This document shows positions 20,504-63,235 of a stretch of 64,000 nucleotides of DNA, piece after piece. Numbering within the stretch: position 1 is the stretch's first letter; every line of letters starts with the position of its first letter. Where the stretch lies: positions 144,371-208,370 of the forward strand of contig JAFCCU010000001.1 in assembly GCA_017610005.1 (NCBI GenBank), in the 5' to 3' direction. The position numbers and the translations under genes are program-made. The stretch comes from Candidatus Woesearchaeota archaeon. GTDB lineage: Archaea > Nanobdellota > Nanobdellia > Woesearchaeales > B29-G15. The notes beneath the pieces are model-generated. The model searched no databases. It had not been told where the DNA came from and saw nothing but the letters and a program-made list of their open reading frames with translations.

Positions 20504-20543
20504 TTAGTAACCTTTAAATAAGAATTCTGGTTAAAAATAAGTT

Positions 20544-44988: not shown

Positions 44989-45186
44989 TTGTTTTATAAG
45001 CAAATGCCAAGAAATTTATACAGATCATTAAAAAATCGTAGAATTGCAGGTGTTTGTGGCGGAATTGCCGAGTATCTAGGTATTGATCCTACTGTGGTTC
45101 GATTAATTTGGATTCTATCTTGCTTTTTAGGAGCAGCAGGGGTTTTAGCATATCTTATCGCTTGGGTAATTATCCCAGAACATTAA
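44989..45186 (+). CDS. PspC-domain membrane protein
   Basis: NRRIAGVCGGIAEYLGIDPTVVRLIWIL followed by a TM helix; 65 aa. Confidence 0.7.
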   Translation: MFYKQMPRNLYRSLKNRRIAGVCGGIAEYLGIDPTVVRLIWILSCFLGAAGVLAYLIAWVIIPEH

Positions 45187-45188
45187 CA

Positions 45189-45451
45189 GTCGGAAGTCTG
45201 AAGTCTGAAGTCTGAAGTCTGAAGTCTGAAGTCGGAAGTCGGAAGTCGGAAGTCGGAAGTCGGAAGTCTGAAGTCGGAAGTCGGAAGTCGGAAGTCGGAA
45301 GTCGGAAGTCGGAAGTCGGAAGTCGGAAGTCGGAAGTCGGAAGTCGGAAGTCGGAAGTCGGAAGTCTGAAGTCTGAAGTCTGAAGTCTGAAGTCTGAAGT
45401 CGGAAGTGAAAAACAATATTTACCATACCTTAAACATTAAACCCTAAACCC
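45189..45451 (-). repeat. Heptamer array module A. It has 31 tandem copies of GTCGGAA/GTCTGAA (45189-45405) plus the conserved about 45-bp flank (45406-45451, reverse complement of GGGTTTAGGGTTTAATGTTTAAGGTATGGTAAATATTGTTTTTCAC). It is inverted relative to modules B and C.
   Basis: 217 nt is exactly 31 x 7. The array starts 2 nt after the PspC stop. The flank is near-identical to the sequence at 56210 and 57436. Confidence 0.9.
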
Positions 45452-45545
45452 TATTTACCTAAATTATAAATTCTCTTTGTACTCCAGATTTAATTTTTCT
45501 CATAGAACATTTTAAATAGTACTTAAGATTTTTTATAGTCGAGAA

Positions 45546-48026
45546 ATGGGTATAAATAAAAAAGGTGTATTATTAGTTTTAATATTAGTTTTGCCTATCA
45601 TTATTATTGCTAGTTCTAAACAAGCTGTAACTCAAGACATATTTGCTGATTATAAAACAAATATTGACTTAAATACGGCCAGAAAATTTACAGTGGGAGA
45701 TTTTTCATTAGAATTAAAAAGTTTAGATAATTTTGTTAAATTAATTGGAGTTAATGAGGATAAAAGCAAATTTTTTTCTTATAGATTTGATTCTCCACCA
45801 AGTGAAACATTTGTAACTTTTGCAACAGATACAGGCGAAAAGAAAGAAGTTTTACTTTCTAATATTCCCGAAGCGAAAAATTCTGATCATTTAAAAAATG
45901 AAGCTGCAAATTCATATGTTGGAAAAATTCAAGGAGTTCTTCTCGAAGACACACGTGAAAAAGAAATTCCTGTAATAATAACCTTAGATATAGGTAAATA
46001 CATGGATTTACGACTAGAAAATTTAGAAAAGAACCAGCCATTAATGACAATTGAAGGAAGTGAAGAAGCGTTCCTTAAGTCCCGCGAAGAACTTCTTAAA
46101 GAGCTCCAAATGGATATTTTAAAAGATTCTTCTAACTTAAGATTAGTTAACGCTGTCGCAACAAAACTTACTCAATCTGAAATCAAGGAGTTAGAGGATT
46201 TAGATATTGTTACAAAAGTTAGTTTTGATAGTCCGGTACATATAGTATTGTATAATTCAACTGAAATAATAAATGCAACAAGTTTATGGCATGCAGGCAA
46301 TAACATAACTGGGAAAGGAATAACTATTGCTATTATTGACACAGGAGTAGATTATACTCATGTTGATTTAGGTGGTTGTCTTGGTGAAGATTGTAAAGTT
46401 TTAAGTGGATATGACTTTGTAAACCAAGATTCTGATCCGATAGATGACCATGGCCATGGAACTCATTGTGCTGGAACTGCTGCTGGAAATGGAACAATGT
46501 TAGGGGTTGCTCCTAATGCAAAAATTTATGCCTATAAAGTTTTAAGTGATACAGGATCTGGAAGCACATCTTGGGTGATTGGGGGAATTGAAAGAGCATT
46601 AGACCCAGATAATGATGGTGATTACTCAGATCATGCAGATGTAATCAGTTTGTCCCTGGGGGGTTCTGGAAATCCAGATGATGAATTATCTCAAGCAGTT
46701 AATGCAGCAACGGTAACTGGAGCAGTAATGGTTGTTGCTGCAGGAAACTCTGGACCTTATGCTGAAAGTATCGGAAGTCCAGGTGGTGCTGAAAAAGCAA
46801 TTACTGTGGGTGCAACTTGTAAGCCTTCCCAAATTGGGGACCATTATTATTGTGATGAAAAAATTGCAAGTTTTTCTTCACGTGGGCCAACATCTACAGG
46901 GAGCATAAAGCCAGATATTGTGGCTCCTGGTGTTTTAATTTGTGCTGCCCAATGGGGAGACGCATGGGCTAGCTCCCAATGTTTTGATAATGATCATACT
47001 GCAATATCTGGAACTTCAATGGCCACACCCCATGTCGCAGGTGCAGCAGCATTATTGCTTCAAAGTCATGTAAATTGGACACCTGAACAAGTTAAATCAG
47101 CTTTAATGACTACAAGCACTAATCTCGGTTATAACCCAAACTTTCAAGGGACTGGTGAAATAAATGTTTTATTGGCTGAAAATGCATCTTTTTCAACTCA
47201 ACCACAAAGTTTGGGATTTGGCTTTGTAAACAATAACGATTTTGCAACTGAGTTTAAAATTATTAACCTAAAAAATACCCCAGTAACTTTAACATTAAGT
47301 GTTGCAGATGTTATAGATGAAGAGTCAAATACATTTTCTTTTGCAAGCTTAAATACAACTTCGATAAATCTTCCAGGTGGAAATTCAACTAACATTACTC
47401 TTGAGATTAATATAACTGGCAATGCAGAAGGCAACTTTTTTGGTATGATTAATATAACCTATGATAATTATGTTGGAAGAATGCCATTTTCATTTGTCAA
47501 GCTTTCCCAATTAACCATTACTGTGAATGGATCTCAAGCAGTTTATCCTGATTTATTGATACATGATGAAAATTTAACAATTAGGCGTGGTGTTTTCCAA
47601 GGGATAGCGTTTGAAGGAGATACTTATACATTTCAAATACCTTCTGGGAATTATACTGTCTACGCAGTTGGTGATCAAGAAGACTTAAATTATGAATATT
47701 TGCTAATGGGGATTGTTGAAGTTCCAATAAATTCTCATATTAATAAGACATTAAATGTATCAAATGCAAGGGAGTTTACAGTTGGAGCTGAGTCTTTGAC
47801 AGGAGAACCGTTAAAATTGTATAAATGGGAAAAGGGATTTGTTTCATATTATTTAGGAGAAACATTAAGCTATTCTTTTGTAGATCCAGAATTTGGAAAT
47901 AGAACCATTAGAATTTCAAATAAACCAGATAATCAAGTAACTACAGACATCATAATCAATTACCATGGGGTACCTACAGATTCAGCTTACACCTCAGGAG
48001 GAAACAGTAGATCAATTGGAACATAA
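45546..48026 (+). CDS. Secreted subtilisin-like serine protease (S8 family) with a long C-terminal beta-rich region
   Basis: Signal peptide. Asp/His/Ser triad motifs AIIDTGVDYTHVDLGG, HGTHCAGTAAG and GTSMATPHVAG. 826 aa. Confidence 0.85.
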   Translation: MGINKKGVLLVLILVLPIIIIASSKQAVTQDIFADYKTNIDLNTARKFTVGDFSLELKSLDNFVKLIGVNEDKSKFFSYRFDSPPSETFVTFATDTGEKKEVLLSNIPEAKNSDHLKNEAANSYVGKIQGVLLEDTREKEIPVIITLDIGKYMDLRLENLEKNQPLMTIEGSEEAFLKSREELLKELQMDILKDSSNLRLVNAVATKLTQSEIKELEDLDIVTKVSFDSPVHIVLYNSTEIINATSLWHAGNNITGKGITIAIIDTGVDYTHVDLGGCLGEDCKVLSGYDFVNQDSDPIDDHGHGTHCAGTAAGNGTMLGVAPNAKIYAYKVLSDTGSGSTSWVIGGIERALDPDNDGDYSDHADVISLSLGGSGNPDDELSQAVNAATVTGAVMVVAAGNSGPYAESIGSPGGAEKAITVGATCKPSQIGDHYYCDEKIASFSSRGPTSTGSIKPDIVAPGVLICAAQWGDAWASSQCFDNDHTAISGTSMATPHVAGAAALLLQSHVNWTPEQVKSALMTTSTNLGYNPNFQGTGEINVLLAENASFSTQPQSLGFGFVNNNDFATEFKIINLKNTPVTLTLSVADVIDEESNTFSFASLNTTSINLPGGNSTNITLEINITGNAEGNFFGMINITYDNYVGRMPFSFVKLSQLTITVNGSQAVYPDLLIHDENLTIRRGVFQGIAFEGDTYTFQIPSGNYTVYAVGDQEDLNYEYLLMGIVEVPINSHINKTLNVSNAREFTVGAESLTGEPLKLYKWEKGFVSYYLGETLSYSFVDPEFGNRTIRISNKPDNQVTTDIIINYHGVPTDSAYTSGGNSRSIGT

Positions 48027-51000
48027 AACCTTACTTACAATTGGATTAGTATTATTTATGTTAGTATTAACTGGTTGCCCTTCTGAAGATAAAGCATACT
48101 CCATTGCAGAAGACCATTATCTTATAGGTTTTATTTTACATAATGTAGATGATTCAACTAATGAAATCCTTAATTATTCTGTTGATGATTTAGCAGTTTA
48201 TAATTATTCATACAATTATCCAGGAGGATTGCCCAGGACATATTCTCAAGTATTATTTTGGGTGGCCCCAATACACGAAAACTCTTCAGCAGGTGCAGGG
48301 TCAAGTTGGATTGATATAAATGTTCCAGTATCAAAAACATATTATTTGTATGGAGAAAATCCAGTTCCACAAAGCTATAGATCAAATTGGTCATTCTCAA
48401 ATTACTTACATGTTAATTACCTAAAATCTGAAGAATCAAGTGTTGAATTTGCTTATGAAGTTATGCAAGTTGAACACTATTTATCAGAAAGTGCATTTTA
48501 TGGAATAACCCCAATACCTGGAGTTTACAAACAAATAAGTTTTGGTGGCGCACCGTACTTGCCAACAAGTATTACAATTAATGACAGTAATTTATTATTA
48601 AATAGTCATCTTCTAAGGGGGAGTAATGGGAATTCTTATATTTCAAGAAGGACCAAACAGGATGTATGGAACTCAGAAACTGGAGAAATTAATGTTTCTC
48701 TTTTGGAACCCAACTTTCAAATTTATAAAGAAGGAAGCTTAGATGAATTTGGAAACTTAACTGATGAAGGTTATAATTGGGATAAAACAAAATTAAATTA
48801 TGACCTGACCAATGGAAATTACACTGTTATTGTAAATTTTTCTTCTTATTACCCTGTTTGGAACCACACAATGATTACAAGTTCCTTTGAATACCCTTCA
48901 ATTGACCCAGAACCACCAGTTTTAACTCAAATAAATATATCTCCAAGATTCCAATATAATGAAAATATTAATGTTTCATTAAATTTTACTGATGATTCAA
49001 CAATTAGCAATGTTTCAATTTTTTATTCTACTGATCTTGATGACACATGGGTAGAGACAAACGTTGATGAAAATTATACAACAAATTTTTCTATCCCTAA
49101 TGGTGGAGAAGAAGAAATAAATTTAAAATTTGAAGCAATCGATTTTTATAATAACTCCATCAATTGGGTTGTAAAACCTGTCTCTTTACTATCAATATTG
49201 CCAATATTTGATTTTGATTGTGAAGAAAGCTCAGCCACCAGAGGTGAATTAATCTCTTGCAGTGGTCAATGTATAACTGACCTCGGTGGAAACTGCAGTG
49301 GGCTTAGGTTTGCATATTATTTAAATGATCAATTTGTTAGTTATGATAGAAGTGAAAAATATGATTCATGGGCTGGGACAGAAGAAGGAGAATTTTCTAC
49401 TGAAATAACTATCCCTTATACAATAACAGGTGATAGTCTAAATATTTCTTTAATTTTCCCAGGGACTGGTATTTTTCAAGATGTCACAGAAACAGTTGAA
49501 ATTGACCTTGTTATGCACGAATATGATCTAGCTGTAAACAACTTAACTTGTCTTAGTCCAGAAATTGATGCAATTAATGATATTACAGCAGAAGTTTTCA
49601 ACAACGGGGATTATGAGTCTACACAAGTAAATGTAAGTTTAATAATTGATCAAGTTTTAGTTAACTCCACAATCATTTCTACAGTATCCAGTTTAGAAAG
49701 CGAATCTGTTTCATTTAATTGGAGCCCAACAGAATCAGGAATTTATAATATTACAATCTATGTAACACCAGAAGATGATGATGGAGATTTAACAAATAAC
49801 TACGCTGAAACAGAAGTTAGTCTGGGGGCAGACATTAAAGGATATATCTCATTATCCTCGTGGAGTAATGCTATTAATGAAAGTGTAGAAATAAATATTG
49901 ACTACGGCAACAATAAAGATATTAATGTCACAGATATTTCTGCTGTTTTCTTTGACTTTTATGATTATGATTCAACTTATCCAGATTATGGAAAACAAGG
50001 TAATCTATACCTAAATGATACTTTATATTATGTCAATGCTACACTCCGCGGAAATTTGGTTGATTTCAACATAACTTATAATGATACTAGTTATTATTAT
50101 ACGCTTCATGAAGGCCAAAGTATATTACTTAATACTGGTGCTCGATTTGATTTTAAATATAAATATTCAGATTATTGTGCGTTGATGATTGGATTTGCGG
50201 AAAAAACTGAATTTGAGCTTGAAAATTTAACAAGTTATGACGAAAAAGAAAAGAAGTTTAATTGGACCCCCACAGTATTAGGCTACCATCGCTTAAAGCT
50301 TTTTATTAATACCTCAAGTGATTCATATTGGGCAAATAATAATGATTACACTGGAGGTTATGTAAAATCATATAATCCAGACTTAATAGTTATGGTAGAT
50401 AGTAATTACTATTTAGAGTACAATGCTCCTTCTAATCTTGAAATTGATATTTATAATGATGGGTATGTGGATTCTGGCCAAATTTCAGGGTTATTTACTA
50501 TTTATTATCCTTATGTTGACGAATATATCTCTTATGAATCTACTGATATTATTGAGTTTAATGGAAATAACTATTCAATTTATGTAAATGGGAGTAGTAA
50601 TTTAGTTTTTTACAATGTAACTTATGATGGGACTTCAGAACTGTTCAATTTAACTTATGGAGAGAATATTACGTTAGGGGATGGAACAGTCCTTGACTCA
50701 GTTTATATGAGTGATTATGGCACAACATCCTTATTAGGGATTCCTAACTCTACAGATGTGTCTTATTCAAGTATTCAAGCAGGGTTCTCTAGATTAGAAT
50801 ATGAAACATGGATACCCGTAGAATTAGGAGATTATTCATTAAAGATTAAACTGGATGATGCAAATGATGCAGACCCAAGTGATAACTTTGATTTTTATGA
50901 AGTTACTGCAAAAGTTCCAGGTCCTGATTTAAGTTTAGGTTTTTATAACTATGAAGATGCCTTTGTAAATCAAGAGTATTCACTAGGAATAAGTCTTTAT

Positions 51001-54000
51001 AATTATGGTACAACTGAAGGAATCAATGCAAATCTTTCCATATTAGACTTGTATAGTTATGAATCTAAATCTGGTTACTTTGCAAATTCAAGAATATTTG
51101 AATTCAATGGAACTGAATTTAATGTAACGCTAAATTCAAGTTCAAATGAAAGTTACCTTGCAGGAAAATTAAAATTTGATGACACAATATTAAATATTTC
51201 GGGGTATGAATGGGGAGATTATTTTGAGGTTGGAGAGGGATTATTCTTTGCTATAGACCGATGTTATACAGATAAATGTTATTTTTTCATTGGCAATGGG
51301 ACAATAACCTCATACACGATTGCAAATATTAGCACTAACACTTATAAGGAATTCAACTTCACTCCAACAGTGATTGGTGAACATGAGATATTCGTTAGTT
51401 TAAATGTAAGTGACGAAGTTGATTATTCCAATAATTATTATAATGATAATTTAGAAGTAATAAAACCTGGGCCAAATCTTTATACTTACTTAGGTGGGGA
51501 TTACTTTATACCTGTAAATTCTTCAACCAATGTTTCTCTTAATTACAAAAATATTGGCACAGCACCCAGTAATTGTTCTTATAAGGTGTATGCTCTTGAA
51601 GAATATAACACTTCATATCTCTATTGTGGGGAAAGCGGAACATTTTATTATAATTCTGAAACTTATTATATTAATTCAACAAATTATAATTCAACCTTTA
51701 AAATTTTTAATATAACTCATAATGGTACAAAATATAATTACATGCTTTCAAGGTATCAGGGAGTAGAACTTCCTAATGGAGATTATTTCTTTAGCGATTC
51801 TGGGGGGAGTTCTAGTTGTTATCCTGGATTTGGAAAAGGCAATTTCTCTTCTGGAAGAATTAACATAGGTCCAACTAATAACTATAATACTGCAATCATT
51901 AGTTATACTCCATCAACGCTTGGACAGATAAAACTGCTTTCATATGCAAATTGTTCTGATGATACTGATTATTCGAACAATGGAGCATATTTTACTTCAT
52001 ATGCCCTTCGTCCAGGTGCAAATGGCGAACCTTATTTCTATATTTCTTCATATACTCAGGCTACGACCTTATCGCTTAGATTAAATAATGTGGGAACAAC
52101 TCAGATTATTAATGGTTCACTGTTCTTATATGAAAATGAAGTTTTGATTTATAATATCTCGGGGTTAACTGTGGATAATGATGACACTTCTTATAATTAC
52201 TATGATTACATTCCTACTACCCTTGGAACAACTACCTTAACTTTAGTTGCAAATGTTCCAGATGATATTAATCAAAGTAATAATATTTACACTAGAAAAT
52301 CTTACACCTATCAAGTTGTCAATAGAAGTTTTACCACAAATGATGAAAATGGATCTGTAAATGATGATCAGATAATTAATCTTTTAAATGATGATCTTGA
52401 TAATGTAGCAAATAAATCAAAAGCAACTTATTATTTCCCTGAAGACAACATAGTTATTCTTAATAATGACACTTCAAATTATTTAACTTCTGTAGAGTAT
52501 ATTCTAGCTAATACGACTAATAATCTTACTGCTCAAACACAATTCTATGAAAACTTTGGAAATAAATATTTTATATATGCAACAAATCCTGATTATAGTT
52601 TTAATAATACAAATTGGGCAATTGAGCATAATGACTATCTCTCTTTTGTCCATTCATTGGAAGGATTTGTTGTTTATGGTTGTAATGATTGGAATTTTTC
52701 ATCGAGAAATTGCTCTTGGAATTATGTTTCTAATGATTTAAATGTTTATTCTGATAGTTTTGAATTTTACGATTACACTGGAAAATACACTACATTTGCC
52801 CTTGCAAATGACACCGACTTAGACAGTGTTCCAACTGATGAAGATAACTGCCCCTACATATTTAATAGAAGGCAAACTGATGTTGACAACGATGGACAGG
52901 GAGATAAATGCGACTCCGATGCAGATGATGATGGAATAAATGATTCTGAAGATACAATTATTGGAAAAGCTGCTTCAATTAATTCAAATGTGGCGTTAAA
53001 CATAACAATAAATGGGAGTTTAAATATTAATGGAACTAAAAATAAAACTCAGCTTGTTGAAATCAAAAAAGAAAATATAACTATTGTTAAATTTAATCAC
53101 AATTTTAGTAGTAAAAGGCTTCAACTAACAAATATCACTATTCGTGTACAAAGCGATACAAGCCCCCTAGGGTATCTAGTTATTCAAGGCATCAATTTGG
53201 TAAATGATACAAAAACAGTCACTGTCGACCGTATAGGTGGCTCTAATAGTGTTTGTGTTAAAGATGCACTTGTAACAAACATATCAGAGATGTCAGATGA
53301 TTGCAATGAGACATATGAGACAGAACTAAGCTGCATTACAGGCCTTGAACAATCAGGATACAACTGCTCTATAAACGGCTCTACTTTTATTATATCAGGA
53401 TTAAATCATTCAGCTTTAAAAGAAATTGCTTTACCTGCTCCAACTACCACAACTACTATTAGTTCCTCCAGTGGAAGCTCAAGTGGAGGGACTGGAATGG
53501 GAATTGCACCGCTTTGTTTGCCTGATCCTCAATGCGGGTCTTGGGGTAATTGCTTTGAAAACGAAACTCAATATAGGGAGTGTTTTGATGCTTGTCGCCA
53601 AAAAGCGTCTGTTGAAAAGCAAAGTTGCACATATATTATGCCCACTACAACAACTTCGATTGAGCCAGTAATAGAAACTCCCGCTTTAATAGAAACTTGT
53701 GATGATGGTTATTGGAATCAAGATGAAGAAGGAATTGATTGTGGAGGGGTTTGTGAACCTTGCAAGGTATTTAAAGATACAATTAAAGCATTACCTATTG
53801 CAATAGGTTTAGGGGTCTTGTTAGGTGGTATTTTGGCCTTTTTATGGGTTAAAAAACATAGTTCCACTCCTGCTTATCATGAAAAAGAAAATGAATTAGC
53901 TGACTTTATTAAACAAGCAAAAGGTGCATTACATAATAAAGATATTGAAACTGCTAGGCAAATGTATGGGAAAATTAAAACAGCTTATTCAAAACTCCCT

Positions 54001-54063
54001 GAACAAGAAAAAGAACTATTCTATGATCACATTATGGAAGTTTATAACAGGTTATCTAAGTGA
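47965..54063 (+). CDS. Giant (about 2000 aa) N-glycosylation-rich cell-surface protein with thrombospondin-type-3-like Ca-binding repeats, a membrane-proximal Cys-rich module, and a C-terminal TM anchor with cytoplasmic tail; candidate S-layer protein or adhesin. The true start is uncertain.
   Basis: Hydrophobic N-terminal segment LLTIGLVLFMLVLTGC with a lipobox-like LTGC. Dozens of NxS/T sequons. DEDNCPY...DVDNDGQGDKCDSDADDDGINDSEDT. CLPDPQCGSWGNC...CGGVCEPC. ALPIAIGLGVLLGGILAFLWV then KKHS. Confidence 0.75.
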   Translation: MGYLQIQLTPQEETVDQLEHKTLLTIGLVLFMLVLTGCPSEDKAYSIAEDHYLIGFILHNVDDSTNEILNYSVDDLAVYNYSYNYPGGLPRTYSQVLFWVAPIHENSSAGAGSSWIDINVPVSKTYYLYGENPVPQSYRSNWSFSNYLHVNYLKSEESSVEFAYEVMQVEHYLSESAFYGITPIPGVYKQISFGGAPYLPTSITINDSNLLLNSHLLRGSNGNSYISRRTKQDVWNSETGEINVSLLEPNFQIYKEGSLDEFGNLTDEGYNWDKTKLNYDLTNGNYTVIVNFSSYYPVWNHTMITSSFEYPSIDPEPPVLTQINISPRFQYNENINVSLNFTDDSTISNVSIFYSTDLDDTWVETNVDENYTTNFSIPNGGEEEINLKFEAIDFYNNSINWVVKPVSLLSILPIFDFDCEESSATRGELISCSGQCITDLGGNCSGLRFAYYLNDQFVSYDRSEKYDSWAGTEEGEFSTEITIPYTITGDSLNISLIFPGTGIFQDVTETVEIDLVMHEYDLAVNNLTCLSPEIDAINDITAEVFNNGDYESTQVNVSLIIDQVLVNSTIISTVSSLESESVSFNWSPTESGIYNITIYVTPEDDDGDLTNNYAETEVSLGADIKGYISLSSWSNAINESVEINIDYGNNKDINVTDISAVFFDFYDYDSTYPDYGKQGNLYLNDTLYYVNATLRGNLVDFNITYNDTSYYYTLHEGQSILLNTGARFDFKYKYSDYCALMIGFAEKTEFELENLTSYDEKEKKFNWTPTVLGYHRLKLFINTSSDSYWANNNDYTGGYVKSYNPDLIVMVDSNYYLEYNAPSNLEIDIYNDGYVDSGQISGLFTIYYPYVDEYISYESTDIIEFNGNNYSIYVNGSSNLVFYNVTYDGTSELFNLTYGENITLGDGTVLDSVYMSDYGTTSLLGIPNSTDVSYSSIQAGFSRLEYETWIPVELGDYSLKIKLDDANDADPSDNFDFYEVTAKVPGPDLSLGFYNYEDAFVNQEYSLGISLYNYGTTEGINANLSILDLYSYESKSGYFANSRIFEFNGTEFNVTLNSSSNESYLAGKLKFDDTILNISGYEWGDYFEVGEGLFFAIDRCYTDKCYFFIGNGTITSYTIANISTNTYKEFNFTPTVIGEHEIFVSLNVSDEVDYSNNYYNDNLEVIKPGPNLYTYLGGDYFIPVNSSTNVSLNYKNIGTAPSNCSYKVYALEEYNTSYLYCGESGTFYYNSETYYINSTNYNSTFKIFNITHNGTKYNYMLSRYQGVELPNGDYFFSDSGGSSSCYPGFGKGNFSSGRINIGPTNNYNTAIISYTPSTLGQIKLLSYANCSDDTDYSNNGAYFTSYALRPGANGEPYFYISSYTQATTLSLRLNNVGTTQIINGSLFLYENEVLIYNISGLTVDNDDTSYNYYDYIPTTLGTTTLTLVANVPDDINQSNNIYTRKSYTYQVVNRSFTTNDENGSVNDDQIINLLNDDLDNVANKSKATYYFPEDNIVILNNDTSNYLTSVEYILANTTNNLTAQTQFYENFGNKYFIYATNPDYSFNNTNWAIEHNDYLSFVHSLEGFVVYGCNDWNFSSRNCSWNYVSNDLNVYSDSFEFYDYTGKYTTFALANDTDLDSVPTDEDNCPYIFNRRQTDVDNDGQGDKCDSDADDDGINDSEDTIIGKAASINSNVALNITINGSLNINGTKNKTQLVEIKKENITIVKFNHNFSSKRLQLTNITIRVQSDTSPLGYLVIQGINLVNDTKTVTVDRIGGSNSVCVKDALVTNISEMSDDCNETYETELSCITGLEQSGYNCSINGSTFIISGLNHSALKEIALPAPTTTTTISSSSGSSSGGTGMGIAPLCLPDPQCGSWGNCFENETQYRECFDACRQKASVEKQSCTYIMPTTTTSIEPVIETPALIETCDDGYWNQDEEGIDCGGVCEPCKVFKDTIKALPIAIGLGVLLGGILAFLWVKKHSSTPAYHEKENELADFIKQAKGALHNKDIETARQMYGKIKTAYSKLPEQEKELFYDHIMEVYNRLSK

Positions 54064-54263
54064 AATACAGGCATTACAAAAGTAAATTTTACGAATTTAT
54101 AGGAATTACGTATGATTCTGAAACTCTTGAAGAATCAGTTGTTTACAAGGCGTTATACCACTATGAAAAATTTGGTAAGATGCAATATGGGTTAGGCCTA
54201 AGACTATGTTTTTTTGAAAAGTGGAATGGAAAATTAATTCCAAGATTCGAGGAAATACAATGA
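54060..54263 (+). CDS. DUF1653-like small protein (GTG start overlapping the upstream stop)
   Basis: KYRHYKSKFYEFIG...ESVVYKALY is a YRHYKG-type motif; 67 aa. Confidence 0.45.
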   Translation: MKYRHYKSKFYEFIGITYDSETLEESVVYKALYHYEKFGKMQYGLGLRLCFFEKWNGKLIPRFEEIQ

Positions 54264-54658
54264 AAACAGTAGTAAAAGCGATTATAAAGAAAAATGGCAA
54301 AATTTTACTTATAAAACGAAGTGAAAACGATAGATATTATCCTGGTGCGTGGGATCTTCCAGGGGGCAATATCGAAGCTAATGAATGTCTTGCCATTGCC
54401 TTGAAAAGAGAAGTTTATGAGGAAACAGGCTTAAAATGTGAGCCTATTGATATTGTATGGCAAAAAACAGAATATGTGATTGACGTTAAAATAAACTTTA
54501 AAGTTTTCTCTACCAGAAACATTTCAGGTGAACTTAAACTATCATTTGAACACAGCAATTTTATGCTCGCTGATGTAAAAAAGATAAAGAACTTAAATGT
54601 AAATCCATTTATTCTTAAAGTAATTTCTGATATCCCTGCAATTGATATTTTGCCTTAA
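54260..54658 (+). CDS. Nudix hydrolase
   Basis: Nudix box GAWDLPGGNIEANECLAIALKREVYEETGL. Start taken at the ATG at 54260 (ATGA overlap with the previous stop). Confidence 0.8.
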   Translation: MKTVVKAIIKKNGKILLIKRSENDRYYPGAWDLPGGNIEANECLAIALKREVYEETGLKCEPIDIVWQKTEYVIDVKINFKVFSTRNISGELKLSFEHSNFMLADVKKIKNLNVNPFILKVISDIPAIDILP

Positions 54659-54781
54659 CCAACACTTTTATAAACGATCAACTCCTTTTCATCAACATGA
54701 ACAAAGAAAGTGATTGTTTTCATTGTTGTTTTAACTAGTTTTCAGTCTCCTAAAACCAATATTCGATATATACTTTCTCCA

Positions 54782-54809
54782 GACTGCAGACTCCAAACTC
54801 CAGATTGTT
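54782..54809. repeat. Degenerate heptamer array (CAGACTG CAGACTC CAAACTC CAGATTG)
   Basis: 7-nt periodicity, the same family as the large arrays; upstream of tRNA-His. Confidence 0.4.
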
Positions 54810-54825
54810 TTGGTTTACCAAAACC

Positions 54826-54833
54826 TTTATATT
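54826..54833 (+). promoter_or_regulatory. TATA-box-like element (TTTATATT) about 27 nt upstream of tRNA-His
   Basis: AAACCTTTATATT resembles an archaeal BRE plus TATA box; spacing is appropriate for a TSS near 54857-54859. Confidence 0.35.
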
Positions 54834-54858
54834 CTAATCAAAAACTTTACGGAGGTAT

Positions 54859-54931
54859 GGCAGCTGTAGTGTAACGGTTAGCATGGGACCCTGTGGAGGT
54901 CCAGGAGCGGGTTCGACTCCCGCCATTTGCC
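54859..54931 (+). tRNA. tRNA-His (anticodon GTG at 54893-54895) with an encoded G-1
   Basis: Manual cloverleaf. G-1:C73. Acceptor GCAGCTG/CATTTGC with one C:U mismatch. D stem GTGT/GCAT, loop AACGGTTA. Anticodon stem GGACC/GGTCC, loop CTGTGGA. T stem GCGGG/CCCGC, loop TTCGACT. Sits directly upstream of hisS. Confidence 0.8.
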
Positions 54932-54940
54932 CTTAAAATC

Positions 54941-56209
54941 ATGAAAACTGTAAAAGGAACCAGGGATTTTCTACCAAGTGAACAGTTAATAAGAGAGGAT
55001 ATTATGCAATCCTTGAGGGTTGTATTTCAATCTTTTGGATTTAGACCTCTTGATACCCCTGCACTCGAACTTTTTGAAACACTTTCCGCTAAATATGCTG
55101 GTGGTTCTGAAATTTTAAAAGAAACTTTCTCATTAAAAGGTAGAAGTGATACACCATTAGGCTTGAGATATGACTTAACAGTGCCCCTCGCGCGTGTAAT
55201 TGCTTCTAATCCACAATTAAAATTTCCCTTTAAACGCTATCAAATAAGTAAGGTTTGGCGCGATGGGCCAGTAGGCATGGGAAGATACAGAGAATTTTGG
55301 CAATGTGATGTTGACACAATTGGTGCTAAATCAATGAAAGCTGACGCTGAAATACTTGCAATTGCTTATGAAGTTTTTAAAAAATTAGAATGCAAAGTTG
55401 TAATAAACGTAAACAATAGAAAACTTCTTAATGGAATATTAGAAAAATTAGAAATTTCTAATACAGCCGATGCAATCTCAATTATTGATAAATTTAAAAA
55501 ATTAAACAAAAAGGGCCTTTTAAAAGAATTTAAAGCTAAAGGCATAAGTTCTGTTACTGCTGAAAAAATATTAAACTTCTTTGAGAAAATTCCAACTAAT
55601 GCACTTTCTTTTCTCTCAAAAGAAATAACAAGTGAAGAGGGTCAAGAAGGGCTCCAAGAATTAAAAGAGCTAAGTAAATATGCAAAAGCTTATGGCATCA
55701 AAGTCAATATAACTCCGGAACTTGCAAGAGGATTAAGCTATTATACTTCAACCATTTTTGAAATATTTGCACCAAAATTCAATTTCTCTTTAGCAGGTGG
55801 CGGCCGCTATAATAAATTAATTGGAAGTTTTTTAAATGCAAAACAAGACTATCCTGCAGTCGGAATCTCTTTTGGGCTTGATAGAATTAGAGATATTTTA
55901 GCTGAAAAAACCACAAAAATCGAAACAAAAACCCAAATATTCATAATCCCTATTGGAACAGAACTCGAAGCAATAGTCCTTACAAAAAAACTTAGAGAAG
56001 TAGGAATTAATGTTGAAACTGATATTATGGGCAAAGGCATAACAAAAAACCTAAATTATGCAAATTCCCTTGGAATCCCTTATGTTTTATTCTTAGGAGA
56101 AAAAGAAATTAAAGCAGGTAAATATAAACTCAAAAACATGACTTCTGGTAAAGAAACCTTAATCACAGAAAAAACCTTAATAAAACAACTTTTTTCTCCA
56201 GACTGTTAG
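54941..56209 (+). CDS. hisS: Histidyl-tRNA synthetase. Start at the ATG at 54941; the track's 54893 start overlaps the tRNA.
   Basis: Class II motifs (GTRDFLP, LRYDLTVPLAR, FRYERPQ-like RYREFWQCDVD, GGGRYN) and a C-terminal anticodon-binding domain. Confidence 0.9.
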   Translation: MKTVKGTRDFLPSEQLIREDIMQSLRVVFQSFGFRPLDTPALELFETLSAKYAGGSEILKETFSLKGRSDTPLGLRYDLTVPLARVIASNPQLKFPFKRYQISKVWRDGPVGMGRYREFWQCDVDTIGAKSMKADAEILAIAYEVFKKLECKVVINVNNRKLLNGILEKLEISNTADAISIIDKFKKLNKKGLLKEFKAKGISSVTAEKILNFFEKIPTNALSFLSKEITSEEGQEGLQELKELSKYAKAYGIKVNITPELARGLSYYTSTIFEIFAPKFNFSLAGGGRYNKLIGSFLNAKQDYPAVGISFGLDRIRDILAEKTTKIETKTQIFIIPIGTELEAIVLTKKLREVGINVETDIMGKGITKNLNYANSLGIPYVLFLGEKEIKAGKYKLKNMTSGKETLITEKTLIKQLFSPDC

Positions 56210-56346
56210 AGGGTTTAGGGTTTAAGGTATGGTAAATATTGTTTTTCACTTCAGACTTCAGACTTCAGACTTCAGACTTCAGACTTCAGACTTCAGACTT
56301 CAGACTTCAGACTTCAGACTTCAGACTTCAGACTTCAGACTTCAGA
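56210..56346 (+). repeat. Heptamer array module B. It has the conserved flank GAGGGTTTAGGGTTTAAGGTATGGTAAATATTGTTTTTCAC followed by (CTTCAGA)x14.
   Basis: The flank starts immediately after the hisS TAG stop; 98 nt of perfect 7-mers. Direct orientation relative to module C. Confidence 0.9.
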
Positions 56347-56449
56347 CTGTTAAATATTTCTTCTCCTTAAATCAGCTGCACGTTCATAGTAAACTCTTGC
56401 TTTTTCAAATCGCCCCTTCTCATACATTATTTCTCCTTTCCTGTGGTAT

Positions 56450-56857
56450 CTAGCTGCTTGCAATAAATACAACTAAACCTAAAAGAATACTAGACGAAGC
56501 AGTTAAGGGTTTAGAAATCTGTCCAGTTATAGAAACACAGTTTTCATCAATTTCATTATTACAATTATCATCAACATCATTACAATATTCACCATGAGGA
56601 AGATTTTCAGTGCATTGACAATGAGTATATTCTATTTCTATTTCTCCTCTCAAATTATCAATTATTCCATCACAGTTATCATCTTGATTATTACATATTT
56701 CTTTAGCCCCTGGAAATACACTATTTGAATTGTCATCACAGTCCGGAGTAGAAAATTGACAGCCACCATTAACCCCAAATCCATCATTATCTGTATCAAC
56801 ACAAACAGCAGATACTAACGGAATCATTAATAGAATTAACAAAACAAAATACTTCAT
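56450..56857 (-). CDS. Secreted Cys-rich protein with three CxDxDxDG-type (MopE-like putative metal-binding) repeats and a C-terminal hydrophobic anchor
   Basis: Signal peptide MKYFVLLILLMIPLVSA. Repeats CVDTDNDGFG, CNNQDDNCDGIID and CNDVDDNCNNEIDENC. C-terminal ILLGLVVFIASS. Confidence 0.55.
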   Translation of the reverse strand: MKYFVLLILLMIPLVSAVCVDTDNDGFGVNGGCQFSTPDCDDNSNSVFPGAKEICNNQDDNCDGIIDNLRGEIEIEYTHCQCTENLPHGEYCNDVDDNCNNEIDENCVSITGQISKPLTASSSILLGLVVFIASS

Positions 56858-56949
56858 ATTTTATTTTCTAGTGTTTTAATGTTTATATAATTTCGGTATT
56901 ATGTGATAGTTACAACAATTTATAAATATCAAGCTCAAAATTACCTTCT

Positions 56950-57435
56950 ATGAAAAAAGGACAGATCATTTCTCAAGTATTTGTTTATATGTTAGTGCTA
57001 TTTGTTGTAGGAATTGTTGCTGTGATTGGCACAATGGGTGTAGGAAATCTACTTGAAAAACAGTGTTTAGCAGATATTTCGAAATTTAAAGGAGATTTTG
57101 CAAAAAATGTTTATGATACCAAAGATTTAGGAGAAGCAAAAATTTATTCTCATAGGATGCCTTGTTCTTTTAATCATATCTGTTTTTTTGATCCCATCGC
57201 ACCTATTGGAACACCTAAATATCAATCTTCTTTTATTCAAGAATATTCAGATTCAAATAATGTATTCTTAGTTAAAGCCCCACAACCAATACGTTCAGAT
57301 ATGGTAGACGCTTTTAATACCTCAAAAATATCTTTAACCACTAGATACAAATGTTTTAATGCAACTAGCGGAAGATTGCGTGTACTTTTAGAAGGAAATG
57401 GCAAACGGGGAACAAAAGTCTTAGTACCAAATTGA
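56950..57435 (+). CDS. Archaeal type IV pilin-like protein (class III signal peptide)
   Basis: MKKG|QIISQVFVYMLVLFVVGIVAVIG has the KG/Q prepilin-peptidase site with a conserved +1 Gln and hydrophobic helix; 161 aa. Confidence 0.5.
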   Translation: MKKGQIISQVFVYMLVLFVVGIVAVIGTMGVGNLLEKQCLADISKFKGDFAKNVYDTKDLGEAKIYSHRMPCSFNHICFFDPIAPIGTPKYQSSFIQEYSDSNNVFLVKAPQPIRSDMVDAFNTSKISLTTRYKCFNATSGRLRVLLEGNGKRGTKVLVPN

Positions 57436-57561
57436 GGGTTTAAGGTATGGTAAATATTGTTTTAGACTTTCGACTTTAGACTTCAGACTTCAGACTTCAG
57501 ACTTCAGACTTCAGACTTCAGACTTCAGACTTCAGACTTCAGACTTCAGACTTCAGACTCC
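57436..57561 (+). repeat. Heptamer array module C. It has the flank GGGTTTAAGGTATGGTAAATATTGTTTT followed by (AGACTTY/CGACTTT)x14, exactly filling the gap between the pilin-like stop and the dnaJ stop.
   Basis: The flank begins 1 nt after the TGA at 57433-57435. The array ends overlapping the dnaJ stop codon (57561-57563). Confidence 0.9.
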
Positions 57562-58616
57562 TAACTCTTAAAACTTCTCTCTAAATCAATAAGAATATTT
57601 TTCTGATTGCGATTAAGCTTTTTAGGAATTTTTATACTAATTGTGATTAATTGATCTCCCCTTCCGCCACCATGTACTCTCCTTAATCCTTGGCCCCGGA
57701 GTTTAAACAAGCTTCCGTCTTGTGTGCCTGTTGGAATTTTTAATTCAGCTTCACCATTTATCGTTGGAATTGTTATCTTCCCACCTATTGCAGCAGTTAC
57801 AAAATTAATTGGCTTCTCGCAAAGCAAATCCATCCCCTGTCGCTCAAAAAAGTTATGCGGTAAAACATTAATGTATACAAATAAGTCTCCTGCAGGGCCT
57901 CCTCTCTCTCCTGCCTCGCCTTTTCCTGGGACCCTTAATCTATTTCCTGATTCAACACCTGCGGGCAAGTCTACTTCGATTTCTTCTTCAATTCTAGTTT
58001 TGCCTTTTCCCTTACATTTTTCGCAAGGTTTAACAATGATTTTACCGGTTCCACCACACCTTCTACAAGGGGCGTTGGTTGCAAATATTCCAAAAGGAGT
58101 TCTTCTAGTTGTTTGAACAACACCAGATCCGCCACAAATTGTACACGATTGGATTCCATCTGGCTCCCCTCCAGTGCCATGACACCTATCGCAAGTTGAA
58201 TTTCTATTTAAAGAGATAACCTTAGTTATCCCTTCTGCAACATCTTCTAAAGAAATTGAAACCTCAATTTGAATATTTCTTCCCCTTCTTGAAGTTGGCC
58301 TCCGACTGCCTCCTCCTCCGAAAAAACTTGAAAATATATCTCCTAAATCAAAGTCTTGGTATCCTCCCTGGTCAAATCCCCTAAATCCTGAAGAACCTTG
58401 AGAATCATTATTGCCAAATCTATCATAGTGATCTTTAGTTTTAGGATCAGAAAGGACTTTATAGGCTTCATTAATCTCTTTAAACTTCTCTTCAGAGGCC
58501 TTATCTCCTCTATTTAAATCAGGATGATGCTTTTTAGCTAAAGTTCTATAAGCTTTTTTAATTTCTTCAAGACTTGCGCCCTTACTTAATCCAAGTTTTT
58601 CGTAGTAATCTGGCAT
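57561..58616 (-). CDS. dnaJ: Chaperone DnaJ (Hsp40)
   Basis: J domain with HPD (KKHHPDLN), G/F-rich region, four CxxCxGxG zinc-finger repeats, C-terminal domain. Confidence 0.9.
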   Translation of the reverse strand: MPDYYEKLGLSKGASLEEIKKAYRTLAKKHHPDLNRGDKASEEKFKEINEAYKVLSDPKTKDHYDRFGNNDSQGSSGFRGFDQGGYQDFDLGDIFSSFFGGGGSRRPTSRRGRNIQIEVSISLEDVAEGITKVISLNRNSTCDRCHGTGGEPDGIQSCTICGGSGVVQTTRRTPFGIFATNAPCRRCGGTGKIIVKPCEKCKGKGKTRIEEEIEVDLPAGVESGNRLRVPGKGEAGERGGPAGDLFVYINVLPHNFFERQGMDLLCEKPINFVTAAIGGKITIPTINGEAELKIPTGTQDGSLFKLRGQGLRRVHGGGRGDQLITISIKIPKKLNRNQKNILIDLERSFKS

Positions 58617-60363
58617 TATTTCTTCTTTTTATCTTTCACTTTATATTCTGCATCAATTGGCTCATCTTCTTTTTTCTTCTTTTTTCCTTCTGTTTCTTTT
58701 GCTTTTTCTTTGGAGGCCTCTTCTTTTTGATAAAGTTTAGTTGACATTTCTTGAGAGAGCTTAGTTAACTCTTCAACTTTTTGTTTGACTTTATCAATAT
58801 CCTTTTTATCAGCTTCAAGTAGCTTTTTAAGGTCATTATTCACTCCAGAGATTAGCTCAGCTTCTTTTTTATCTACCTTGTCCTTTAATTCAACAAGCAT
58901 TTTTTCAGTTGAGTAAACCATGGCATTTGCCTGATTAATTAAATCAACTTCAGCTTTTTTCTTAGCGTCAGAAGCTTCATACTTTTTAGCGTCTTCGGTC
59001 ATCTTTTTAATATCTTCATCACTTAAACTTTCTTTTCCGGTAATTTTAATTGACTGTTCCTTGCCTGTTCCTAAATCTTTTGCTGAAACATGTACAATTC
59101 CGTTTGAATCAATGTCAAATCCTACTTCAATTTGCTCCTTGAAAAACTCGAATGCTAACTGCTGGCTGGTTATCATCTGCAGTAGAAAATGTTTGAGCTT
59201 TCTTAATAGGAATTGTAGTATTTCTATCTATAACTTTAGTAAATACTCCTCCCAAGGTTTCAATACCAAGAGAAAGTGGAGTGACATCAAGAAGCAATAC
59301 ATCTTTAATCTCTCCCTTTAAGTAGAGCAATGGCTTCATCAGGATTAATGGATTTTTCTCCTTCTTTACCAGTTATATCTTTAATTAGCTTCTCAACTGC
59401 AGGAATTCTTGTAGATCCTCCAACCAAAATCGCTTGACCAAGTGGTTTTTCATCTAATTTACCATCTTCGAGAGCCTTTTTTGTTGGGCCCTCAAGTCTC
59501 TTTAAAATATCACTAATTAACTCTTCAAATTGAGCCCGAGTGATCTCTTTTTGTAAGTGTTTTGGCCCAGCGTCAGTTGCTGTAATAAATGGAAGGTTAA
59601 TTTGTGTTTTTGTAGCAGTAGAAAGCTCTTTTTTAGCATTTTCTGCAGCTTCTTTTAACCTTTGATAGGCTTGTTTATCTGCTCTTAAATCAACACCGTG
59701 GCCTTTTTTAAAGTCATCAGCTAAAAAATCGACAATTAATTCATCAATGTCATCTCCACCTAAGTGGTTATCTCCTGCTGTTGAAATTACTTCAAATACT
59801 CCATCGCCTAATTCTAAAACAGAAACATCAAAAGTTCCTCCTCCAAAATCAAAAACTAGGATTTTTCCAACCTTCTTTTTATCAAGACCATATGCTAATG
59901 CAGCAGCAGTAGGTTCATTAACTATTCTTAATACATTTAATCCAGCAATTTTTCCTGCATCTTTTGTAGCTTGCCGTTGAGCATCTTCAAAGTAAGCTGG
60001 AACAGTTATTACCGCATCAGTTACTGCAGTTCCCAAATAAGCTTCAGCATCTCGCTTAAGCTTTTGTAAAATCATTGCTGAAATTTGTTGTGGTGAATAA
60101 TCCTTATTATTAACTAACACTGAAAAGTCACGCTCACCCATATGTCTTTTAATACTTCTTACAGAATGCTCAGGATCCATTATAGCCTGATTTCGAGCAA
60201 CTTTACCCACTACTACTTCATCGCCTTTGATTTGTACGACAGAAGGTGTAGTTCTTTCTCCTTCACTATTAGTGATAATTGTTGGTTTTCCTCCTTCAAC
60301 TACTGCAACAGCAGAGAAAGTTGTACCAAGATCGATTCCGATTACTTTTGAAAATTCAGTCAT
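58616..60363 (-). pseudogene. dnaK: Chaperone DnaK (Hsp70) interrupted by two frameshifts. ORF pieces are 59305..60363 (NBD), 59127..59339 (linker/SBD start) and 58616..59176 (SBD/lid).
   Basis: N-piece has [14 protein letters not shown]. Middle piece has [16 protein letters not shown]. Last piece has GIVHVSAKDLGTGKEQ. The summed length is about 608 aa. Breaks lie at T/A homopolymers and may be assembly indels. Confidence 0.8.
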
Positions 60364-62256: not shown

Positions 62257-62676
62257 TTTGAGAGCCCTCCTCGCCTGTTTTATTGTCCTTTAAAAATAGT
62301 TATTACTATATAAAACTTTCGAAAAGCTATTTTGAAGTAGTATTTCAATATTCATTAAGGTAAATTATCTTTTCACCCTTCATTTTAAGCACCATTATAC
62401 CTGCCATATGCTATTTTTTACCTTTCCAAATGTTTAACTCCCATTCTTCAAAGCCAGTGTCTGAAGCGGTATAACAGCGATTAAGAGGTAAATTTTCTTG
62501 CAGAAAATTTCCCCAAATTTTGCCTACGGCAAAACTTCTCTTAATCGCGATGTTAAATACAATAAAATTTGGGTTCCATATTTAGAATCGGGGGTCTCTA
62601 GTCCTTCGGACATTTAGTCTGCTTCGTAGATATTTATTGTTAAAGGGGACACACTTAAAAAAAGAAAAAAAATAAT

Positions 62677-62799
62677 TTATGCTACTGCATAAAGTGATTC
62701 ATCGTAAACATGAAAACCTTTTTCCTCAATTTCATGAGGAGATAGCTCTTCCACTTGCTCTGGATGCATAAGGTTTCCATATTTGTCTTGGTATAACAT
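62677..62799 (-). CDS. Mini-ORF 1 (40 aa) with a GGAGGTGA SD
   Basis: MLYQDKYGNLMHPEQVEELSPHEIEEKGFHVYDESLYAVA*; SD GATGTAGGAGGTGAAAGAAAATG. Confidence 0.3.
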   Translation of the reverse strand: MLYQDKYGNLMHPEQVEELSPHEIEEKGFHVYDESLYAVA

Positions 62800-62818
62800 T
62801 TTCTTTCACCTCCTACAT

Positions 62819-62914
62819 CTAATTTTCTATTGCAACTTCGTGCATAAACTCATCAATCCGAAAGTCATACAAATCTCCAACTAATTTTCTATTGTATCCT
62901 TTTTCATATATCAT
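62819..62914 (-). CDS. Mini-ORF 2 (31 aa) with a GAGGTGA SD
   Basis: MIYEKGYNRKLVGDLYDFRIDEFMHEVAIEN*. Confidence 0.25.
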   Translation of the reverse strand: MIYEKGYNRKLVGDLYDFRIDEFMHEVAIEN

Positions 62915-62924
62915 AACAATCACC

Positions 62925-63023
62925 TCAACAGCTTACTGCTGGACTCTCAAAATCCATCAGCATCTTTTGCAGATCAACTGTCATCCTTCCTTTTGAACCC
63001 TCGATTGTAATTACATTATCCAT
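62925..63023 (-). CDS. Mini-ORF 3 (32 aa)
   Basis: MDNVITIEGSKGRMTVDLQKMLMDFESPAVSC*; its stop overlaps the SD of mini-ORF 2. Confidence 0.25.
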   Translation of the reverse strand: MDNVITIEGSKGRMTVDLQKMLMDFESPAVSC

Positions 63024-63109
63024 TCTTTATCAATCCATTTATCTTTAAATTCTGCTAAGTGGTCACCAAAATTGTAGGTTTCCCACCATAGTTTTTCGTC
63101 CTGCAACAT
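63011..63109 (-). CDS. Mini-ORF 4 (32 aa, Trp-rich) with a perfect AAAGGAGGTGATACAAATG SD
   Basis: MLQDEKLWWETYNFGDHLAEFKDKWIDKEWIM*. Overlaps the alternative 44-aa ORF 63063..63197. Confidence 0.3.
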   Translation of the reverse strand: MLQDEKLWWETYNFGDHLAEFKDKWIDKEWIM

Positions 63110-63235
63110 TTGTATCACCTCCTTTTACAGTTTTCAAAGTAAGGTTTTTTGTAGCTTCAAAAAATGATTCTTGAATTAAATCAGGGGATAGTTTCATTTT
63201 TAGCCACCTCAAAAAAATTCAAAAAAAAGAAAAAT

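Follow-up and report, generated by a model that had tools for sequence, protein, structure and literature searches.

Heptanucleotides form the most abundant class of long simple sequence repeats (SSRs) in prokaryotes, and polymerase slippage has been proposed to generate them, at least as the work of Mrazek et al. (2007) is relayed in PMC4679880 and PMC4692102. Heptamer families to which no function has been assigned include the cyanobacterial STRRs, the GGGAATC-type repeats of Xanthomonas and Nostoc, and the TAACTGA repeats of Beggiatoaceae (PMC4679880, PMC4692102). According to a 2025 survey (PMC12699852), short tandem repeats are sparser in archaea than in any other domain, at about 1.02 bp per kb over all unit sizes; no heptamer-array family in an archaeon was found described in the literature searched. 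The present analysis concerns such a family, (TTCAGAC/TTCCGAC)n, in a 64,000-nt stretch (the window) of contig JAFCCU010000001.1 from a Candidatus Woesearchaeota archaeon. An initial annotation of this DNA had recognised no described archaeal family of the kind, a statement that stands for archaea, although the kind itself is described in bacteria. With a probability of roughly 0.58, the arrays belong to a lineage-specific, slippage-driven heptanucleotide SSR family that corresponds in archaea to the long SSRs of bacteria and the STRRs of cyanobacteria, has multiplied by duplication, and is tolerated in intergenic DNA only.

The window has a GC content of 32.8% and is ~88% coding and 11.6% non-coding. 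Tandem Repeats Finder (TRF), combined with direct reading of the sequence, identifies five clean arrays (4.4, 7, 31, 14, and 14 copies) and two degenerate ones. The clean arrays consist of head-to-tail units without spacers, with a TRF period of 7 and 91-100% matches, and perfect arrays of at least three copies are absent from the window for all other periods from 4 to 11. The dimeric 14-mer AGTCKGAAGTCKGA, allowing at most one mismatch, occurs 63 times versus 0.03 expected, and the (TTCMGAC)n family alone gives the window a heptamer-array density of ~7.7 bp per kb. The arrays and isolated units are as follows.

45189-45405, minus strand: array A, 31 units (TRF 45188-45407, 31.4 copies, 97%); block order from the flank outwards TTCCGAC x1, TTCAGAC x5, TTCCGAC x13, TTCAGAC x1, TTCCGAC x5, TTCAGAC x5, TTCCGAC x1
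56250-56347, plus strand: array B, perfect (TTCAGAC)14 (TRF 56248-56348, 14.4 copies, 100%)
57464-57558, plus strand: array C, AGAC, TTTCGAC, TTTAGAC, then (TTCAGAC)11 (TRF 57461-57559, 14.1 copies, 96%)
20454-20502, plus strand: array D, 7.0 units, 100% (TRF), without flank
19491-19521, minus strand: array E, 4.4 units, 91% (TRF), with one TTCAAAC (AGTTTGA) variant, without flank
54777-54806, plus strand: degenerate array F, CTCCAGA CTGCAGA CTCCAAA CTCCAGA T (TRF 54777-54804, period 7, 4 copies, 80%), without flank
16995-17059, minus strand: degenerate locus G, directly 3' of the stop of a CBS-domain gene (TAG; CTA at 17061-17063 on the plus strand)
56196-56209, plus strand: hisS tail CTCCAGACTGTTAG, comprising part of an S codon, the PDC codons, and the stop, and containing one degenerate unit
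45482-45490, plus strand: solitary degenerate unit CTCCAGATT, between flank A and the promoter of an S8 peptidase gene

These data bear out the multi-locus family proposed in the initial annotation, including its copy numbers of 7, 31, 14, and 14; the array near 19 kb has 4.4 copies at 19491-19521 rather than the 5 given there. Array A, which reads on the other strand as GTCGGAA and GTCTGAA mixed in blocks, carries its A/C variants block-wise, a pattern typical of slippage or sub-block duplication. Both degenerate versions are likewise real (54777-54806 and 17007-17037). At locus G, the minus strand contains GAGTCTGGAGC twice, as a direct repeat bracketing four degenerate units of opposite polarity (CCAAACT GCAGACT GCCTACT GCAAACT); on the other strand, the degenerate tract at 17007-17037 reads CAGTTTG CAGTAGG CAGTCTG CAGTTTG.

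All five clean arrays lie within the 11.6% non-coding fraction (P about 2e-5 for random placement), in agreement with the earlier description of the family as strictly non-coding. The related claim that the unit never enters genes, save at the 3' end of hisS, is correct for tandem copies, none of which occurs within a gene, but not for single units, which are present at six genic sites (TTCAGAC at 12941 and 62459; TTCCGAC at 23978, 32085, 32163, and 55859). The hisS exception is a degenerate unit embedded in the last codons, and the hisS of relatives usually ends about 4 residues sooner than the gene in the window. Those last codons are provided by one copy of the motif CTCCAGAYT, which occurs 8 times versus 1.04 expected, with 6 of the 8 copies adjoining arrays.

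The closest parallels to this family are the STRRs and other bacterial long SSRs. The shared features are the 7-nt unit repeated head to tail without spacers, the dispersal of one unit family over many intergenic loci of a genome (here five clean and two degenerate in 64 kb), composite heptamer tracts, lineage-specific presence, a lack of assigned function, and a proposed origin in slippage; confinement to non-coding DNA holds for every array here. The STRR units are reportedly those of Mazel et al. (1990), namely CCCCAGT, TTGGTCA, and CAACAGT. The unit here is TTCAGAC/TTCCGAC, and it is carried by a DPANN archaeon instead of a cyanobacterium or another bacterium, so the family falls outside STRRs sensu stricto, which are defined by a cyanobacterial host and the STRR1-3 units. 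It differs further in that three arrays share an identical 28-47-nt flank and in that arrays occupy whole stop-to-stop spacers of a very compact genome.

Similar comparisons apply to the other bacterial families. The GGGAATC and GGGGA(T/C)T repeats of Xanthomonas and Nostoc are also intergenic heptamers, sometimes in inverted pairs and without a link to any gene class, and they vary in length and sequence between close species at the same intergenic site (PMC4692102). Those units are G-rich and form G-quadruplexes, whereas the archaeal unit is not G-rich and its RNA is essentially unstructured; short G-runs occur in the flank only (GGGTTTAGGGTTTAAGGTATGG). The TAACTGA repeats of Beggiatoaceae, some Cyanobacteria, and Bacteroidetes resemble the present family in the use of one heptamer at many intergenic loci with tracts of other heptamers nearby, and they form long arrays of up to 43 copies in some genomes (PMC4679880). 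Most TAACTGA tracts, however, have 2-6 copies and lie a few nt upstream of start codons, where translational control has been suggested (PMC4679880), whereas the arrays here lie upstream of a TATA box or past stop codons and never beside a start codon.

The arrays also share with CRISPR loci, with miniature inverted-repeat transposable elements (MITEs), and with repetitive extragenic palindromes (REPs) a repetitive, intergenic, multi-locus character. CRISPR arrays consist of repeats of about 23-50 nt with unique spacers between them, usually accompanied by cas genes. As the initial annotation had concluded, the arrays are not of this type, being contiguous 7-nt units without spacers, and no Cas domain is present among the window proteins scanned. 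Nor are they MITEs or REPs, as they lack terminal inverted repeats, palindromic units, and an associated transposase in the window.

A scan of genome collections with (TTCMGAC)3 returned at least 120 loci in Bacteroidota, Planctomycetota, Acidobacteriota, Cyanobacteria, Patescibacteria, and others; among the matches listed, neighbouring tracts of other heptamers or inverted pairs are frequent, and arrays reach 34 units. In viral contigs, the real unit gave 19 loci versus 15 and 7 for two shuffled-unit controls. Because the shuffled controls are about as common, the wide distribution reflects a general abundance of heptamer SSRs and not conservation of the TTCMGAC unit, and conservation across phyla was rejected on these grounds. 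A crude open reading frame (ORF) test on the at least 120 bacterial loci placed 39 of 53 arrays of at least 6 units outside long open frames, a figure that was not used because high GC content inflates the 'in ORF' class. Two of the bacterial loci, L003 and L076 (Chitinophagaceae/Chitinophagales), contain (TTCNGAC)n arrays with a near-identical adjacent terminator-like hairpin, AAAAAAGCGTCCCGTTAAAGACGCTTCAA; flank-plus-heptamer-array modules thus exist in Bacteroidota too. An unrelated metagenome contig matched by chance, L121 (Ga0105051_10040523), has 64-75-bp tandem repeats (~4 copies) at 1503-1852 and 3284-3603; the gene that they bracket contains a repeat of 12 bp in frame, TCGTAGAAAATG x5.8.

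The three long arrays are distinguished by a common flank, the core of which, AAGGTATGGTAAATATTGTTTT, occurs exactly three times in the window versus 0.00 expected (45410-45431, minus; 56224-56245, plus; 57442-57463, plus), confirming the shared element noted earlier. The full flanks are the following.

45406-45452, minus strand: flank A, AGGGTTTAGGGTTTAATGTTTAAGGTATGGTAAATATTGTTTTTCAC, equal to flank B plus one heptamer ATGTTTA
56210-56249, plus strand: flank B, AGGGTTTAGGGTTTAAGGTATGGTAAATATTGTTTTTCAC, beginning 0-1 nt past the hisS stop TAG (56207-56209)
57436-57463, plus strand: flank C, GGGTTTAAGGTATGGTAAATATTGTTTT, equal to flank B minus one GGGTTTA, beginning 0 nt past the TGA of a 161-aa pilin-like gene

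Indels of exactly 7 nt are the sole differences among the three sequences, which are otherwise identical, and the flank therefore lies in the heptamer register of the array. Its start is a mini-array, (GGGTTTA)1-2. This short tract is not a telomere-type repeat, (TTTAGGG)n, as it consists of only one or two internal copies and not of long terminal arrays; GGGTTTA is not enriched across the window (15 versus 10.4 expected). In other sequence collections the flank is represented by chance matches only, with one 22-mer match in metagenome contigs, inside a coding region, and one 20-mer match in viral contigs, inside a gene; BLAST against phages and plasmids gave E >= 2 at best.

Flank and array together form modules that fit tightly between genes. 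Module A, on the minus strand, consists of the flank, 31 units, TG, and then TTA, the stop of pspC (TAA, 45184-45186), so that 2 nt separate array and stop. Module B, on the plus strand, runs from the hisS TAG through flank, 14 units, and TG to a TTA, at which a convergent, frameshifted gene (56350-56857) terminates; the 140-bp spacer consists entirely of flank and array. Module C, also on the plus strand, runs from the TGA of the 161-aa gene through flank, array, and TC to CTA, the dnaJ stop, and flank plus array again constitute the entire spacer, here 125 bp. The far end of each long array is thus separated by 2 nt from a convergent stop codon (that of PspC, 56350-56857, or DnaJ), and the positions relative to stops reported in the initial annotation (flank B 0-1 nt past the hisS TAG, flank C 0 nt past its TGA, array A 2 nt past the PspC TAA) are accurate. 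Modules A and B additionally share a left edge, AGGGTTTAGGG, and 6 nt past the array (TGTTAA). A 10-nt direct repeat, CAGACTGTTA, is found in the hisS tail and at the right end of module B (56343-56352) and has no equivalent at A or C. Two 13-mers are common to array-adjacent regions, GGGTTTAATGTTT at 19438 and 45432 and TTTCTCCAGACTG at 54774 and 56193, a sharing that is suggestive only because an AT-rich window of this size contains hundreds of chance 13-mer pairs.

Comparison with relatives indicates that the modules are lineage-specific additions. Archaeal markers in the window (aIF5A, ribosomal protein S8e, SRP54, and promoters with a B recognition element (BRE) and TATA box), together with best named hisS matches in Woesearchaeota/Nanoarchaeota, the nearest of which is 62% identical, identify the host as a DPANN archaeon for which no close relative has been sequenced. 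The comparison set comprised seven related DPANN contigs (111 kb), in which no perfect array of at least three copies was found for periods 5-9. In the relative with the 62% identical hisS (L168), the stops of hisS and a 136-aa gene overlap, as do those of the pilin-like and dnaJ genes, both within the 4-nt sequence CTAA. The pilin-like and dnaJ genes also overlap in L122, L123, L125, and L172, and overlaps in relatives range from 4 to 11 nt. Most other convergent pairs in the window overlap or lie <60 bp apart. Because the corresponding stops overlap in relatives, modules B (140 bp) and C (125 bp) are insertions that form 100% of new spacers, and the absence of arrays from relatives marks the family as lineage-specific and dispensable for the neighbouring genes.

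That these joins could be assembly or sequencing artefacts, an outcome the initial annotation had named as fatal to its claim, is extremely improbable. Gene order across B and C matches that of relatives (hisS, small secreted protein, pilin-like, DnaJ, DnaK, CxxC, GrpE), so the joins are not chimeric. The five loci have unique flanking sequence and occur in both orientations, arrays A and C contain internal variant units, and degenerate relatives of the arrays exist at further loci. One aspect of array length may nonetheless be affected: perfect runs extend to 101 bp (array B, the longest), just above a typical maximum k-mer of about 100, and a collapse of array B is conceivable, so its copy number may be a lower bound. 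The arrays are likely points of assembly break or collapse.

The minus-strand gene beyond array B, at 56350-56857, encodes a secreted Cys-rich protein with a MopE-type metal-binding motif and a signal peptide; it is frameshifted near 56450, with its C-terminal 32 residues in another frame. The C-terminal sequence YHRKGE...RRRNI* corresponds to the end of the 136-aa protein encoded next to hisS in L168, and the TTA after array B is the true stop of the frameshifted gene. A second damaged gene lies nearby, a dnaK split on the minus strand (58616-60363) into ORFs 59305-60363 and 58616-59176, with frameshifts and apparent internal deletions around 59177-59304. DnaK of relatives is intact (605-623 aa), and the copy in the window is either a pseudogene or an assembly error. 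Gene decay of this sort, in the broken dnaK and in 56350-56857, fits weak purifying selection against junk DNA.

These features can be accommodated by a passive mechanism. A short seed, for example (T/C)TCCAGAC or TTCAGAC, would grow and shrink in 7-nt steps through slipped-strand mispairing during replication or repair, and arrays would survive only at sites where the gain or loss of 7 nt leaves reading frames intact. The 7-nt indels among the flanks and the block structure of array A lend such slippage indirect support. As a compact genome offers few intergenic bases, arrays might extend until they abut stop codons or promoter edges. The flank would be an older, now degenerate part of a heptamer-phased tract, readable as (GGGTTTA)1-2, (ATGTTTA)0-1, AGGTATG, GTAAATA, and TTGTTTT. 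The three flank-bearing modules may then have spread as paralogous copies by ectopic duplication or gene conversion, which we infer in preference to independent births. The effect of the arrays on the cell is probably passive, for example the spacing of convergent gene ends or the extension of the distance upstream of promoters, and no evidence was seen for arrays acting as a gene, promoter, structured RNA, or autonomous mobile element.

Several observations weigh against this slippage-and-duplication account. Of the three modules, only B has a direct repeat, CAGACTGTTA, at its ends, and the 100% identity of the three flanks over 28-40 nt could mean selection on the flank rather than recent copying. 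Arrangement is also somewhat regular: the three short arrays (D, E, and degenerate F) all point (TTCAGAC)n to a TATA box 10-20 nt off, which would happen 1 time in 8 by chance, and the long arrays all begin 2 nt past a stop codon on the GTCTGAA strand.

The placement of the short arrays invites a function at the DNA level. Putative promoters in the window (e.g. 20513-20520, 45517-45524, and 54826-54833) consist of a BRE-like A-rich stretch and TTTAWAWA, with the box starting mostly about 29-31 nt before the ATG, which suggests mostly leaderless transcripts. Array D lies between two hairpin/T-run elements and the promoter of the threonyl-tRNA synthetase (ThrRS) gene and stops about 10 nt before the TATA box TTTAAATA. 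Array E precedes the TATA box of a minus-strand nucleotidyltransferase-domain gene (17562-19421) by about 15 nt, and degenerate array F that of tRNA-His by about 20 nt. Arrays might accordingly be cis elements, either multivalent targets of a DNA-binding protein with sequence specificity or insulator spacers that exclude histones, upstream of the ThrRS, tRNA-His/hisS, and nucleotidyltransferase promoters and between convergent genes. The shared polarity of the short arrays, the perfect conservation of the flank in three copies, and the 8-fold enrichment of CTCCAGAYT, mostly beside promoters or gene ends, are consistent with such a role. Array D, set between terminator-like hairpins and a promoter, is probably in untranscribed DNA, so any role common to the arrays would be at the DNA level. 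We nevertheless consider a cis-acting role unlikely, if worth keeping in view. In relatives, these genes have neither array nor spacer, array length varies between 4 and 31 copies irrespective of gene type, the agreement in polarity (3/3) corresponds to a P of only 0.125, and repeats spaced 7 bp apart do not keep phase with the DNA helix. The window yielded no candidate binding protein; it does encode an ArsR/MarR-type helix-turn-helix regulator, but nothing links that regulator to the arrays.

The hairpin elements next to array D form a distinct feature at 20298-20440, 3' of a 202-aa gene, where a two-hairpin plus T-run element is present in two tandem copies with compensatory changes in the second hairpin (arms GTCGGAAGG...CCTTTCGAC versus GCCGGAAAGG...CCTTTCCGGC). 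The two elements may be terminators or a small RNA pair; they have no Rfam match.

The exact fit of modules B and C between stops that overlap in relatives could alternatively reflect mobility. A non-autonomous module of flank plus array would be cut- or copy-and-pasted into gene ends, at stop-stop junctions, by an enzyme supplied in trans from elsewhere. Identical flanks at three loci, together with the left edge AGGGTTTAGGG and the TGTTAA beyond the array common to A and B, speak for such an element, and the CAGACTGTTA repeat that bounds B might represent a target-site duplication in which neither stop codon was lost. Yet the right copy of that repeat coincides with an array unit and may equally represent a degenerate unit captured in the hisS tail, and A and C have no direct repeat at all. 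None of the modules is bounded by terminal inverted repeats, and the window ORFs of at least 100 aa scanned against Pfam include no transposase, integrase, or reverse transcriptase; a MITE was rejected on these grounds. As two arrays lack the flank and the flank is found elsewhere by chance matches only, a mobile module is rather improbable. An extension of this idea combines propagation with function: flank plus (TTCAGAC)n would be an actively propagated module that lands between overlapping convergent stops and just upstream of promoters, where it would keep colliding transcription units apart, either as an insulator bound by protein or as a spacer without structure. This combination is speculative, and about as doubtful as mobility alone.

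The position of the repeat 2 nt past the stop, on the sense strand of PspC, 56350-56857, DnaJ, and the CBS gene, raises the further question of a role in RNA. Arrays could serve as 3' untranslated regions (UTRs) of PspC, DnaJ, and the secreted protein and attract a nuclease or a protein that binds single-stranded RNA; alternatively, transcription of a repeat or antisense RNA could be driven by the flank and run into the 3' ends of stress genes. Repeat RNA is unusually unstructured, as would suit a single-strand binding platform, and the CUGA/UGA in each unit places stops in all three frames. The tests performed do not favour these roles. A position weight matrix (PWM) built from 33 putative BRE/TATA sites in the window scores the TAAATATT site of the flank, read towards the array, at -1.6 bits, and the best site anywhere in the three flanks at 0.8-2.9 bits, compared with 6-17 bits for the training sites and 2.0 for the 99th percentile of all window positions. 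The flank is thus unlike host promoters, falling far under the BRE/TATA consensus, and the TATA-like box assigned to it in the initial annotation is not supported. RNA of (UUCAGAC)n plus flank folds less stably than every one of 200 shuffled sequences (z about +4), and the (GUCUGAA)n strand folds at the level of shuffles (z -0.6 and +1.25). In a search of the window with Rfam 15, tRNA-His alone reaches its gathering score, and the sole match to the modules at E <= 1 is a chance-level snoR64 over flank B (22 bits versus 45, E 0.93). On these results, a structured RNA, terminator hairpin, or Rfam family was rejected, and the earlier suggestions of a structured 3'UTR or terminator and of a repeat-RNA gene, which has neither promoter nor Rfam match, are not supported. 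Being upstream of promoters, arrays D, E, and F would fall outside the neighbouring mRNA, and the arrays are absent from relatives. An RNA-level role is therefore improbable.

Translation of the repeat fares no better. A peptide (FRLQTSD)n could start at an ATG in the flank, and this frame is open in A and B; in C, it meets an in-frame TAG after 10 codons, and the reading also lacks a promoter and a properly spaced Shine-Dalgarno sequence. A restriction-site array was rejected as well: CTGAAG in the unit and CTGGAG in the degenerate unit, which we take to be Eco57I/Eco57MI-type sites, are neither avoided nor enriched outside the arrays (54 versus 44.6 and 37 versus 33.1).

Slippage-prone arrays beside surface genes also recall the contingency SSRs of Haemophilus and Neisseria, which are sometimes 7-nt and sometimes intergenic (PMC12721329, PMC8262952). 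Under this explanation, also raised in the initial annotation, copy number would switch surface genes (S8 peptidase, pilin-like, and secreted Cys-rich protein) by phase variation; several neighbours are indeed secreted or surface proteins, and the SSRs are long enough for hypermutability. The Haemophilus and Neisseria repeats, however, gate expression from within ORFs, core promoters, or 5'UTRs (PMC12721329, PMC8262952). No array in the window lies in an ORF or between a TATA box and a start codon, and the array edge closest to any ATG is at least 40 nt away, upstream of the TATA box. Copy-number change therefore cannot shift a reading frame or core-promoter spacing. Housekeeping genes are flanked too (hisS, ThrRS, tRNA-His, and DnaJ), and the length of the three arrays at 3' ends cannot control expression, leaving phase variation very improbable.

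The family shows that the heptamer phenomenon is not restricted to bacteria, and explanations tied to the footprint of bacterial DNA polymerase III would need generalising; occurrence in an archaeon would point to a heptamer-generating mechanism independent of the bacterial replicative polymerase. It also shows that highly compact genomes can acquire heptamer tracts quickly, and the arrays are potential strain-typing markers for this lineage.

Three other regions of the window have unusual organization. A 68-bp tandem duplication at 23803-23941 (2 copies, 90% identical) extends across the convergent stops of SRP54 (22477-23817, plus strand) and a 134-aa gene (23877-24281, minus strand), and looks like a way of separating overlapping gene ends that is independent of the heptamer family. 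At 62257-63235, ~1 kb without any ORF of at least 60 aa contains at least two tiny minus-strand ORFs (~40 aa) behind strong GGAGGTG ribosome-binding sites. The subunit of a thiamine pyrophosphate (TPP)-dependent enzyme encoded at 292-2319 carries an intein with a LAGLIDADG homing-endonuclease domain.

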